From the IMG/VR virus record IMGVR_UViG_2740892119_000002: DNA of 64,000 bases; one strand, 5' to 3'. The notes beneath the pieces are model-generated. The model saw nothing but the letters and a program-made list of their open reading frames with translations. It searched no databases and was not told where the DNA came from. The stretch is from a virus. Lineage: Duplodnaviria > Heunggongvirae > Uroviricota > Caudoviricetes. The translations under genes and the position numbers were made by a program. Position 1 is the stretch's first letter. Every line of letters begins with the position of its first letter. This document shows, piece after piece, positions 46,819 to 50,110 of this stretch.

Positions 46819-47328
46819 ATGGGGCACAATAACACTAAGGGAAACCGTAAATTTATTAAGGGCCGCTATACTGCCAACGCGGCCAAAGGCGAACGACTGG
46901 TATCTTCTGAATTCCAGCTCACTTTTGCAGGCTATGAAGATATCAGTGTACTTGTTCGTACGTCGCAAATCCCTGAAATGACTCGCGAGGATGTGGAGGA
47001 CTATGGTCCGAATGGTGTGAAGTTCAACCAGCACGGACCAATTCGAAACTCTGGGGAAATCCAGGTCCAGTGCGTGGAGACTATCGAAGGCGATATTCTT
47101 CAGTTCATTAAGGATCGCATTGCGGCGAAGGACTATGTTGATATCACGATGGCTGCTACCCCTGAATCCAAATCTTCCGGGGTTAACGCTGTGACAAAAG
47201 CTGCTACAACAATTGAAATGTTGGACTGCAAAATCTACAGTGATGCAATCGACTTTAGTACCGAAGATGTGACTGCCGCTGTGCGCCCGTCACTTCGTAT
47301 CGTCTACAACTGGATTGAGTGGGATTAA
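46819..47328 (+). CDS. tail tube-like protein (169 aa)
   Basis: Size and beta-rich composition similar to myovirus tube proteins. Confidence 0.5.
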   Translation: MGHNNTKGNRKFIKGRYTANAAKGERLVSSEFQLTFAGYEDISVLVRTSQIPEMTREDVEDYGPNGVKFNQHGPIRNSGEIQVQCVETIEGDILQFIKDRIAAKDYVDITMAATPESKSSGVNAVTKAATTIEMLDCKIYSDAIDFSTEDVTAAVRPSLRIVYNWIEWD

Positions 47329-47347
47329 GAGTCATCCCTTGTATTTT

Positions 47348-47374
47348 AAAGCTCCTTCGGGAGCTTTTTTATTT
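47348..47374 (+). terminator. rho-independent terminator AAGCTCCTTCGGGAGCTT plus T-run
   Basis: Perfect 7-bp stem with TTCG loop followed by TTTTTTATTT. Confidence 0.8.
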
Positions 47375-47444
47375 GGAGAGGAAAGGGTGCATTGAGGATA
47401 CCTGACACACGAAGAGTGGCGGAGATCTCTCCCCGCCAGGTCTC

Positions 47445-47600
47445 TTACCTTTCAGATTCGTAGGCTGTGAAGACAGTGACCTCCGTCTGGCTGGTTCGGA
47501 TTCGTACCTCGCAGAGGTCTTTCCTCGTTACCAGTGCCGTCACAATGACGGTTAAACAGATGACGATCAGAGCGATTAACATCGCTTTTTGCTGCTTCAT
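47445..47600 (-). CDS. hok: Hok/Gef-family type I toxin (51 aa): MKQQKAMLIALIVICLTVIVTALVTRKDLCEVRIRTSQTEVTVFTAYESER
   Basis: Manual translation; strong match to Hok (LTRKSLCEIRYRDG..EVAAFMAYES); below the ORF-track cutoff. Confidence 0.8.
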   Translation of the reverse strand: MKQQKAMLIALIVICLTVIVTALVTRKDLCEVRIRTSQTEVTVFTAYESER

Positions 47601-47658
47601 AGCCTGCTTCTCCTTGACCTTTTGGTCGGTAAGAGGCTAATCTACGTATGCTAAGCAT
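47452..47658 (-). CDS. mok-like overlapping reading frame upstream of and overlapping hok
   Basis: 68-aa ORF in a different frame covering the hok leader, as in hok/mok/sok loci. Confidence 0.35.
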   Translation of the reverse strand: MLSIRRLASYRPKGQGEAGYEAAKSDVNRSDRHLFNRHCDGTGNEERPLRGTNPNQPDGGHCLHSLRI

Positions 47659-47894
47659 AGATATGGCCTCAGATTAATGTTAAGCGTCTTGCAGGACGCG
47701 TAATGTTATCTGGGGCTTTCTTCTATCTGCTTTTCGGGTAATGCCTGAAGCAGATAGCCTCAAGCACCCGCAGCGATTGTATCAATGTCTGGCTTTTTTT
47801 CTATAGAAATCACCTGGAAGGGTGAATACCCACATCAGAAGAAACGTTGCAGCAAACATGATCCCTAATGGCCAGACCGCGCCAAAGAAAATCC

Positions 47895-49235
47895 ATAGTG
47901 ACTGCTCCCCGCCCTGTCGGGCGAGGCTTCCCACTTCTTAAGCCGCAACCGTCTGTGTGACGGATTTACGCTGGCCTCCATGGGCAGAAACGACGAGTCC
48001 CGCCGCTTGTAATTCCAGTATGCCCTTGCGTTTGATGTTGAGCGCCGCATTGATATCGCGGTCATGTTCAACTCCACACTCTGGACACTGCCAGAAGCGC
48101 TTATGTAATGGCATCTCCGACATTTTGTGACCGCAGCAGTGGCAGGTTTTCGAACTGGCGAACCATTGATCCAGTTTCACCAGATGCACACCTTTCTCTG
48201 TTGCTTTGTATTCCAGTTTTGTGATGAATCCAGACCATCCAGCATCGCCTATCGCACGAGCCAGATGGTGATTTTTCATCATATTTGCCGTTTTCAATGT
48301 CTCGACAATTACCGCTTGGTTTTCGTCAACAATTGCGCGAGATAACTTGTGCTGGAAATCGGCACGGGCACTGGCTACCCGTTCGTGAACGGCTGCAAGT
48401 TGTATTCTGGCTTTGCGCCTGTTTGCGCTCCCTTTTTTCTTACGGGACAGTGCTTTCTGCTTCCGGCGCAGGTTGCGACTTGCATTGATTAGGTGGCGGG
48501 GACTGGCAATTTTATTGCCGTCCGATTTGATGACAAAATGCGCCAGCCCCATATCCAGCCCTGTCACATTTGATATCAGTGCGGGCTTTGCCGGCGCTTC
48601 CATCCCGTCGTCACAGAGTAACGACGCGTAGTATTTCCCGGTTGCGCTGCGGCTCAACGTGATACTTTTCAGCATTCCCGTAATTTCACGATGTAAACGC
48701 GCTTCAATCGGCAAGATTTTCGGTATTTTTATCGCACCATCAAGGACTTTTATGCCAACACAATGATAGCTAGATTGTCTGCCGTGTTTACTTTTAAAGG
48801 TAGGTTTACCTGCTTTCAGTTTCGGATTGAAAAAGTTAGAAAAAGCCACGTCGAGGTTAATTACCGCCTGCTGCAACGCAATAGAATCATATTCTTTAAG
48901 CCATCCATACCGGCGGGATTTCTTCGCCACTGCAAGCAGTGGTTTGAGGTCTTTACGCGGGTTTAAATTTACGCGGTGCCGCTGGTAAGAATGTTTCTTG
49001 ATATGCAGAGCTTTGTTGTACACAAAACGCACTGCACCGAACTGGGCGTTGATAAATTCAGCCTGTTCTGGTGTCGGATAGATGCGTACTTTTGTTGCTC
49101 TTAACATAGTCACCGCTCATTGGTACAGGTTTTTATACTAACACCGTAATAATATTTTTAAAGCCCTTCGGGCTTTTCCGCCTTTCCTCCCCGCCCGCAT
49201 TGGGCGAGGGTTCTCGGCGGTTTTTCGCTGAAAAC
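47895..49235 (-). mobile_element. IS200/IS605-family element carrying only tnpB (no tnpA); subterminal hairpins at both ends
   Basis: CTCCCCGCCC-N5-GGGCGAGG hairpin at 47905-47926 and at about 49187-49210; boundaries approximate. Confidence 0.65.
47938..49113 (-). CDS. tnpB: TnpB, RNA-guided RuvC-like nuclease (OrfB family)
   Basis: 391 aa; C-terminal zinc finger CHCCGH...CPECG; RuvC-like motifs. Confidence 0.85.
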   Translation of the reverse strand: MTMLRATKVRIYPTPEQAEFINAQFGAVRFVYNKALHIKKHSYQRHRVNLNPRKDLKPLLAVAKKSRRYGWLKEYDSIALQQAVINLDVAFSNFFNPKLKAGKPTFKSKHGRQSSYHCVGIKVLDGAIKIPKILPIEARLHREITGMLKSITLSRSATGKYYASLLCDDGMEAPAKPALISNVTGLDMGLAHFVIKSDGNKIASPRHLINASRNLRRKQKALSRKKKGSANRRKARIQLAAVHERVASARADFQHKLSRAIVDENQAVIVETLKTANMMKNHHLARAIGDAGWSGFITKLEYKATEKGVHLVKLDQWFASSKTCHCCGHKMSEMPLHKRFWQCPECGVEHDRDINAALNIKRKGILELQAAGLVVSAHGGQRKSVTQTVAA

Positions 49236-49264
49236 GCCAGGTAACTCCAGATTAGAGCAATCTA

Positions 49265-50110
49265 TCACCCTCTGAATCCTGCCGGTATACCCCATTGTTC
49301 GTTATCTTTATTTTTGGCTAAAACCGCATTAAGAGCTTCGTTTACCGTCATGCAATGCGGCAGATTATCGAAGTTTGATACCCCGCCAATATCAGGAGAA
49401 CGCTTGTTCTTCAGGTAAGCATATTTCCGCGCTGCCGCCTCTACTTTCTGCTTGAACTCATGTTTTTGTGCGCGTTTTTTGGATAACCGCAGATTGTCAG
49501 CCTTTGCTTTTGCCTCAGCGATCCATGAAGTCAATTTTTTGAGTCTGGTCGTTCCGGCACCGCCGGAAACTGATCTTTTTGTTTTTTTAACTTGTGACTT
49601 CTTATTCTTTATTGCCACGTCATCCTGACAGGGGGAGGGGGTATCATTTTGACATGGGGGTGTGGATAAAAAATTAAATAAAGCCAATGTCTTAGCGAGA
49701 ACAGCTTTAACCTTGGTTGCCGCTGAAGAGATCTTTAATTTGCTTTCAATCAGCGCATTTTTGGCTTGTTGTGCGAAGGCCAAAAAGGATGGCGTAAACC
49801 GGTACAGGTTAGCGCGACGTTCACGGTGATCGCCGATAACAATCTCTACAGACAGAATTCCTTTGTTTACAGCTTCACGGAATGCACGAACGACGGTTGA
49901 TTGGCTATAACCAGTTTCTGCCGCGATCAGGCGGTGAGGCTTGTGAATGAAGTATTCACTGGTTGTTGCCGCGAGATTTGCACATTGCGACAGGATATGC
50001 CCGGCGCTACGGGATAGACCGGAGTGTGTTACAAAGCAGGCCAATTCATAGCCAGAAAAAGTAAAATCGCTCATCGTTATACAGCTCAGGAAAGTGACTT
50101 TAGCCAGCAT
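49265..50110 (-). CDS. repL: lytic replication protein RepL
   Basis: 281 aa directly downstream of kilA in the same operon. Confidence 0.8.
   Translation of the reverse strand: MLAKVTFLSCITMSDFTFSGYELACFVTHSGLSRSAGHILSQCANLAATTSEYFIHKPHRLIAAETGYSQSTVVRAFREAVNKGILSVEIVIGDHRERRANLYRFTPSFLAFAQQAKNALIESKLKISSAATKVKAVLAKTLALFNFLSTPPCQNDTPSPCQDDVAIKNKKSQVKKTKRSVSGGAGTTRLKKLTSWIAEAKAKADNLRLSKKRAQKHEFKQKVEAAARKYAYLKNKRSPDIGGVSNFDNLPHCMTVNEALNAVLAKNKDNEQWGIPAGFRG

Follow-up and report, generated by a model that had tools for sequence, protein, structure and literature searches.

The stretch of DNA analysed here (the window; 64,000 nucleotides, IMG/VR record IMGVR_UViG_2740892119_000002) comes from a P1-like (Punavirus) phage-plasmid and carries next to its repL gene a 1,330-bp element of the IS200/IS605 family, at positions 47898-49227. 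With a probability that we put at about 0.85, this element is a non-autonomous transposon derived from ISEc46 (the ISfinder name), which encodes a TnpB protein together with an omega RNA and is inserted 3' of a TCAG tetranucleotide. The family is catalogued, the element is already annotated in a published relative and it is of a well-understood kind; what is new compared to that annotation is its hybrid make-up, as judged from sequence comparisons. Since tnpB is on the minus strand, the top strand of the element corresponds to the minus strand of the window, with the left end at high and the right end at low coordinates, an opposite orientation that a first-pass annotation of the window had missed. 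The main parts of the element and its insertion motif are:

47898-49227, minus strand: whole element, a non-autonomous, tnpA-less, ISEc46-derived transposon of the IS200/IS605 family
47938-49113, minus strand: tnpB, 391 amino acids with GTG as start codon, 389 if counted from the ATG at 49107
49114-49227, minus strand: left end and 5' leader of tnpB, delimited by alignment with a full ISEc46 (L004) and with a tnpA-less plasmid copy (L005)
47898-47930, minus strand: right end, carrying a motif that is essentially invariant in 60 loci
49228-49231, minus strand: TCAG, left cleavage site and transposon-adjacent motif, in the flanking DNA outside the element

The element begins 37 bp downstream of the stop codon of repL (49265-50110, minus strand), in agreement with the position beside repL given in the first-pass annotation. 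The P1-like SHV-2 phage RCS47 (FO818745) has the same element at the same place, annotated as "orfB, Transposase ISEc46, IS605 family", with 98.6% identity over the element and its flanks. Nothing essential differs between the two, except that the RCS47 record labels the product as a transposase and not as an RNA-guided nuclease, and that RCS47 is devoid of the hok/sok segment found on the other side of the element in the window. The plasmid NZ_LR890538.1 holds a copy that is 100% identical. Intact copies were found in only 6 of about 650 P1-like replicons.

Boundaries, ends and DNA guides

Homology with element-free P1 DNA breaks off at 47897 and restarts at 49228, and exactly the same span was found in three unrelated contexts, namely the window, a chromosomal ISEc46 flanked by yebE and ptrB (L004) and another plasmid (L005). 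The right end reads ...GAG(C/T/A)AGTCAC with essentially no variation across 60 related loci, which come from Photorhabdus, Serratia, Aeromonas, Vibrio, Halomonas and others; beyond it the DNA is unrelated, each locus having a flank of its own. Moreover, about 30 Escherichia coli records, such as NZ_CP081764.1 (L086), carry the exact element-free joint TTTTCAG/TATGG, that is ...GGCGTTTTCAG/TATGGATTTTC..., in which there is neither a target-site duplication nor a scar, as is the case for insertion and excision of IS200/IS605 elements. The first-pass annotation had set the outer limits at 47895-49235 and had proposed to map them against an uninterrupted relative; the contexts compared, the 60 loci and the joint in NZ_CP081764.1 place the true ends at 47898 and 49227. 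The conservation of the right end also answers its concern that other copies might not share the ends.

Both ends contain a subterminal imperfect palindrome, conserved with compensatory changes across 69 relatives. Within the 64 kb, the hairpin motif CTCCCCGCCC-N-GGGCGAGG has exactly two occurrences, at 47905-47926 and 49187-49209, and it appeared in none of 100 shuffled sequences. The two cores, CCTCGCCC-loop-GGGCGGGG, share a conserved T.G opposition. The same imperfect hairpin had been noticed earlier at both ends with a loop of 5 nucleotides (nt); this loop length holds for the left end, whereas the right-end loop has 4 nt. The features of the two ends are:

49189-49209, minus strand: left-end imperfect hairpin, CCTCGCCC-AATGC-GGGCGGGG
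49210-49213, minus strand: left-end DNA guide, GAAC
47927-47930, minus strand: right-end DNA guide, GAAG
47907-47926, minus strand: right-end imperfect hairpin, CCTCGCCC-GACA-GGGCGGGG, with compensatory changes
47898-47901, minus strand: right cleavage motif, TCAC

In IS608 of Helicobacter pylori, the guide AAAG pairs with the site TTAC, and GA.. with TCAA (PMC3201880). Under this rule, the sequences of the guide/site pairs GAAC/TCAG (left) and GAAG/TCAC (right) are compatible with Watson-Crick pairing between guide base 1 and site base 2, guide base 2 and site base 1, and guide base 4 and site base 4, the third site base, A, being unpaired. The left-end guide was GAAC in 6 of 6 independent insertions abutting TCAG (the window and 5 other independent insertions of a plasmid-borne sub-lineage) and AAAC in about 56 of 56 abutting TTAG. 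The A to G change in the guide thus co-varies with the T to C change in the site (6/6 versus 0/56; Fisher p = 1.6e-8). The TCAG at the left junction belongs to the P1 backbone, as it is found in the element-free sequences MH422554 (L002) and L086. Cleavage lies 18 nt from the hairpin foot on the left and 9 nt on the right, compared to 19 and 10 nt in IS608 (PMC3201880). As both guides and distances follow IS608, the ends look competent for a TnpA acting in trans, and the element appears to keep all the cis requirements of single-strand "peel-and-paste" transposition, namely both hairpins and the 4-nt guides. IS608 likewise inserts 3' of a tetranucleotide without duplication and has imperfect hairpins, but its sites are TTAC and TCAA instead of TCAG or TTAG and TCAC, and its tnpA and tnpB genes are both present and co-directional. 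Covariation of motif and DNA guide, tnpA-less elements and alternative choice of boundaries have already been described for Geobacillus elements (10.1101/2023.03.14.532601), and the features found here are therefore known in kind.

TnpB and its predicted omega RNA

The tnpB open reading frame (ORF) matches the Pfam families HTH_OrfB_IS605, OrfB_IS605 and Cas12f1-like_TNB with scores above the cut-offs, and the NCBIfam model guided_TnpB at 341.8 bits (cut-off 100). Its product aligns over the full length with the structures of ISDra2 TnpB from Deinococcus radiodurans (PDB 8H1J and 8EXA; E=1e-74, ~40% identity) and shows the same domain order. The RuvC triad D187/E271/D353 (391-residue numbering) aligns with D191/E278/D361 of ISDra2, and the zinc-finger ligands C324/C327/C343/C346 are kept, with both CxxC pairs conserved. 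The protein differs from chromosomal ISEc46 TnpB by 3 amino acids. The first-pass annotation had described a RuvC-like protein of 391 residues with a C-terminal zinc finger, and had named frameshifts or loss of the RuvC residues as what would speak against it; the alignment with ISDra2 bears out the description, as the ORF is full length and the D-E-D triad and the CxxC...CxxC zinc finger are present. With these domains, the cognate subterminal hairpins and no tnpA, its view of a TnpB-only element of the IS200/IS605 family also stood. A nuclease-dead TnpB-like repressor (TldR), a type of protein that has lost RuvC catalytic residues and is usually shortened at the C terminus, was considered and ruled out, as all three catalytic residues, the zinc finger and the full length are present. 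By analogy with ISDra2, the intact TnpB is predicted to be an RNA-guided endonuclease.

The guide RNA of such a nuclease was predicted at the 3' end of tnpB and in the right end, overlapping the tnpB stop codon (47938-47940):

47898-48008, minus strand: predicted omega RNA scaffold, about 111 nt, from a 69-sequence alignment (A1) folded with RNAalifold
47988-48008, minus strand: stem-loop 1
47930-47984, minus strand: long-range helix, enclosing the helices 47941-47976 and 47949-47963
47907-47926, minus strand: right-end hairpin, as part of the RNA
47882-47897, minus strand: predicted 16-nt guide, TATGGATTTTCTTTGG, placed by analogy with ISDra2

Alignment A1 comprised the last 200 nt of 69 relatives. 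The consensus structure contains 34 pairs, 19 of them with compensatory changes; 97.8% of the alignment cells were paired, compared to 33-53% in slid controls, and none of 500 shuffles reached the observed values. Because G-U pairs are frequent, the structure belongs to the tnpB-sense strand. The single-sequence minimum-free-energy fold of the window copy agrees with the consensus, and every helix is intact in it. A candidate pseudoknot, in which a GAC of the stem-1 loop would pair with the GUC at positions -5 to -3, is compatible with the alignment (96.6%); since it is nearly invariant, covariation speaks neither for nor against it. The scaffold of ISDra2 measures 116 nt and has a pseudoknot at the same place (PMC10097598). 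An alternative proposed by RNAalifold, a long-range helix between the GAC of the HDRD codons and GUC near the 3' end, was replaced by the stem-1-loop pseudoknot, which matches the ISDra2 position; neither of the two is supported by covariation. Overall, the covariation supports an omega RNA encoded by the 3' end of tnpB and the right end, as the first-pass annotation had expected, with a guide that would run into the flank. The covariance-model search that it had suggested gave a different result: no Rfam omega RNA family matched within 47000-50000 (E<=1), where only sok and chance hits were obtained, and the structure is supported by the comparison of the 69 relatives instead.

In ISDra2, whose omega RNA likewise derives from the 3' part of tnpB plus the right end and resembles that of the window in scaffold length (~110-116 nt) and in the possible pseudoknot at -5 to -3, a 16-nt guide lies directly 3' of the right end (PMC10097598). 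The corresponding sequence of the window, TATGGATTTTCTTTGG, is flanking P1 DNA inside a truncated small membrane-protein gene and occurs nowhere else in the window. In element-free genomes, CTTAG stands directly before it in the L002 type (308 genomes) and TTCAG in the L086 type (about 30 records).

How tnpB might be transcribed was addressed with a promoter and terminator scan. Upstream of tnpB it gave no consensus sigma-70 promoter; visual inspection picked out a weak candidate in the leader, TTAAAA-18-TATAAA. The gene is read in the same direction as kilA-repL, with no terminator-like site detected in between. The sequence ATTGCTCTAAT at 49251-49261 (minus strand), between the repL stop codon and the left end, is the conserved half of a C1 repressor operator, which is annotated in P7 as Op(rap) just after repL; the homology with P7 ends directly after this half. 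A C1-controlled promoter driving tnpB was therefore considered and then dropped, as only the conserved half of the P7 Op(rap) remains.

Missing tnpA and hybrid make-up

In line with the first-pass annotation, no partner tnpA was found in the element or anywhere else in the 64-kb window by tblastn with ISEc46 TnpA (best E=1). The Y1 (HUH) transposase that characterises autonomous IS200/IS605 members is thus missing, and the element is a non-autonomous derivative. Compared to a full chromosomal ISEc46 (L004), in which tnpA is transcribed divergently from tnpB, about 443 bp including tnpA are deleted, and the tnpA-less elements of the L005 type have the very same deletion junction. Two traces of the lost gene were located:

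49160-49177, minus strand: remnant of the tnpA terminator hairpin
about 49145-49153, minus strand: junction of the tnpA deletion

The derivation from the catalogued ISEc46 by loss of tnpA and by hybrid formation had escaped the earlier annotation. Sliding identity divides the element into two parts. Over nucleotides 1-140, which comprise the left end and the leader, identity is 97% with the L005-type elements and 88% with chromosomal ISEc46, whereas the sequence beyond nt 140 is 99-100% identical to ISEc46 and 70-87% to the L005-type elements. Judging from these identities, the first ~140 nt are from the plasmid-borne, TCAG-targeting, tnpA-less sub-lineage, with the deletion already present, and tnpB and the right end are those of the chromosomal TTAG-targeting ISEc46. 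With respect to ISEc46 (e.g. NZ_CP151026.1, between yebE and ptrB), the window copy therefore has the same end architecture, but it is without the divergent tnpA and has GAAC/TCAG instead of AAAC/TTAG at its left end. With respect to the tnpA-less TCAG elements of E. coli plasmids (NZ_CP085065.1, NZ_CP083587.1 and NZ_CP128940.1), the left end and the deletion junction are 97-99% identical and the guide GAAC is shared, whereas TnpB differs. Among 5,426 complete E. coli genomes, the hybrid signature was found in 6 only, all of them with P1-like plasmids and always at this P1 site.

The plasmid-borne sub-lineage (L005, L089-L094 and about 117 further records) consists of widespread tnpA-less TnpB elements of E. 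coli. They always follow TCAG, have the guide GAAC and encode TnpB proteins with 81-86% amino-acid identity to that of the window; their neighbours include psiA, antirestriction, integrase, tail-fibre and hicA genes. Photorhabdus genomes (L012-L034 among L006-L085) also contain numerous copies of this TnpB family, the majority without tnpA. There the left end is located about 150 nt upstream of tnpB when tnpA is missing and about 500-550 nt upstream in the few loci with tnpA. The left ends of three loci (L010, L020 and L023) appear broken after the first hairpin arm.

Most tnpB genes have no accompanying tnpA and rely on mobilisation in trans, and TnpB functions in homing (10.1101/2023.03.14.532601; PMC8612924). 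Mobilisation of the window element would require that TnpA be supplied in trans, for instance from a full chromosomal ISEc46, which is present on about 480-490 chromosomes in the genome set (~9% of complete E. coli chromosomes).

The hybrid make-up bears on the motif that TnpB might recognise. The motif of ISDra2, which has its own tnpA, is TTGAT, compared to TTAG/TCAG here, and is contacted by Y52, S56, K76, F77, Q80, T123 and N124 (PMC10097598). Five of these seven residues differ in the window protein; K76, for example, is replaced by S. Only the position equivalent to F77 splits the lineages: all 24 TTAG-associated proteins have I or L there, and all 5 TCAG-associated ones, including those of the NZ_CP085065.1-type elements, have M; the window protein has I (residue 78 in the 391-residue numbering, 76 when counted from the ATG). 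As seven columns discriminate the two groups and the chance of one of them falling on a contact position is about 0.12, this position is a lead and not a finding. No published TTAG motif for a TnpB was found in the literature, in which ISEc46 was found only as a name in resistance-genomics surveys.

Insertion site in the P1 backbone and possible role

The gene order of P1 and P7 is repL-rlfA/rapA-rlfB/rapB-pmgF-bplB, whereas that of the window is repL, the element, a truncated small membrane-protein ORF, sok/hok and bplB. As the element lies where the order departs from that of P1, the first-pass annotation had suggested that it may have mediated a local rearrangement between the tail genes and repL. 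This we regard as very improbable. The replacement of rlfA-rlfB-pmgF by the small ORF and hok/sok is present in element-free sequences, namely MH422554 and 308 genomes of the set, with the order repL-small ORF-hok/sok-bplB, and the substitution is thus independent of the element. In addition, the interval between repL and bplB is known to be a hot spot of variation in P1-like plasmids (PMC6906374). The allele distribution suggests that the hok/sok substitution predates the element-bearing lineages. The only difference linked to the element is a segment of 143 bp of the commonest element-free allele, which the element replaces and both edges of which adjoin TCAG or TTAG; in MH422554, the left flank TTTTCAG and the right flank TATGG... 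lie 143 bp apart, and CTTAG precedes the right flank. Such edges could result from recombination between two elements inserted 143 bp from each other or from aberrant cleavage by TnpA, but the deletion is also found in about 30 records without any element.

Three histories of the site were considered. The element may have inserted cleanly after TCAG in a plasmid that had already lost the 143 bp (L086 type); a TCAG-type element upstream may have recombined with an ISEc46-type element inserted after CTTAG; or a resident TCAG-type element may have been gene-converted from a chromosomal ISEc46. Recombination between two elements would account at once for the deletion, the hybrid and the two flanking motifs. 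However, each of three predicted intermediates was found in 0 records of the 5,426 genomes: the left end of the window element after CTTAG, the left end of ISEc46 at that same place, and a right end that still has the 143 bp beside it.

The following features adjoin the right end:

47782-47897, minus strand: remnant of a small membrane-protein gene of about 80 amino acids (compare MH422554, L002, 3299-3441)
47782-47934, minus strand: 50-amino-acid ORF that exists only by reading out of the right end
47445-47769, minus strand: hok/sok module, directly beyond the truncated small ORF
47445-47600, minus strand: Hok ORF, 51 amino acids (Pfam HOK_GEF, E=1.3e-20)
47595-47769: Rfam sok match, 114.9 bits (gathering score 59)
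47343-47378, minus strand: weak Rfam CRISPR-DR46 match just after bplB, 25.9 bits (gathering score 50; E=0.47)

The start codon and the first ~47 codons of the small gene fall in the 143 bp missing from the window, and RefSeq marks the remnant as a pseudogene ("membrane domain protein") in NZ_CP081764.1, one of the roughly 30 joint-bearing P1-like plasmids that are without both the element and the 143 bp (L086, 1600-1720). The hok/sok module is present in element-free P1 relatives as well and was therefore not brought in by the element. The CRISPR-DR46 match is most likely a chance hit to a short, terminator-like GC hairpin in an A/T-rich context.

Other alleles of the site were also found. 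In one of them (Kluyvera cryocrescens NZ_BCTM01000057, L060, 1-2420; L087 and L088), tnpB is cut by an IS1 at residue 134, and the P1 DNA next to the right end starts 34 bp later than in the window, precisely behind an ATTAG. The junction recurs unchanged in at least 12 E. coli plasmids, which points to a single lineage that may have arisen either by an independent insertion or by a deletion adjacent to the right end. A TnpA-mediated deletion adjoining the right end is a possible cause of both the 143-bp and the 34-bp differences. In NZ_CP030285.1 (L003, 2045-2556) and several other plasmids, the element is reduced to the terminal 38 bp of its right end (47898-47935), followed by fragments of IS30-, IS3- and IS1203-type insertion sequences.

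By analogy with ISDra2 and the Geobacillus elements, TnpB and its omega RNA would cleave element-free copies of the locus that carry the motif followed by TATGGATTTTCTTTGG. Repair of the cut by recombination with an occupied copy would bring the element back, and cleavage followed by repair would favour its retention and spread among co-resident P1 genomes.

Several observations weigh against an element that is still mobile and active. The hybrid was found at no second site in the 5,426 genomes, which leaves its own mobility unproven, and the element-free joint, which could be the product of scarless excision, could equally be the pre-insertion site. Decay is common among the relatives, with at least 12 IS1-truncated genomes and others reduced to the 38-bp stub. 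Neither a consensus promoter nor an Rfam omega RNA match was obtained, and expression and activity of TnpB are argued by analogy. Finally, a TnpB of the TTAG type lies beside a TCAG left flank, so that cleavage of its own excision joint may be inefficient. The absence of tnpA, the rarity of intact copies, the larger number of truncated or stub derivatives, the confinement of the hybrid to one site and the lack of a clear promoter could describe an inert relic, a decaying insertion sequence neither mobilised nor expressed, whose intactness would reflect recent origin. We nevertheless consider such a relic improbable, because its 389-codon ORF is complete, with all catalytic residues and zinc ligands and 3 amino acids of difference from chromosomal ISEc46 TnpB, all omega RNA helices are intact, the left-end guide matches the flanking TCAG and seamless element-free joints exist.

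P1-like plasmids of one incompatibility type compete within cells, and TnpB could mainly serve to cut rival P1-like plasmids or phages with an intact small gene (TTAG followed by TATGGATTTTCTTTGG), as a competition weapon or gene drive rather than for the retention of the transposon. The canonical TTAG indeed precedes the guide sequence in the commonest element-free P1 allele (308/5,426 genomes), in the intact small gene of roughly half of all P1-like plasmids, and the TnpB of the window is of the TTAG-associated type. However, the standard homing model predicts the same for any TnpB element, no feature specific for defence or competition was found, the guide is a mere insertion flank and the occupied allele is rare, with 6 intact copies. 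This role is therefore unlikely, although slightly less so than the inert relic. Also doubtful, and to about the same degree as the relic, is a mismatched hybrid whose left end sends TnpA to TCAG while its TnpB is of the TTAG type, which would act against rival P1-like phage-plasmids and give no protection from its own excision.

The non-autonomous, ISEc46-derived transposon thus remains the preferred reading, and its main value is a clean annotation, in which the ends, omega RNA, guide and target motif of an ISEc46-type copy are mapped to the base in the RCS47-type P1 lineage. If the mismatch were true, the lack of protection from excision might explain the roughly 30 seamless empty joints, and the I or M at the ISDra2 F77 position would be a natural one-residue handle on TTAG versus TCAG recognition. 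Rivals of the host phage-plasmid carry a perfect target, and the idea of homing or competition is directly testable in E. coli with P1. The family as a whole offers a natural example of re-targeting: one compensatory change in the DNA guide of the left end takes it from TTAG to TCAG, a switch that a candidate change from I to M in TnpB may accompany.

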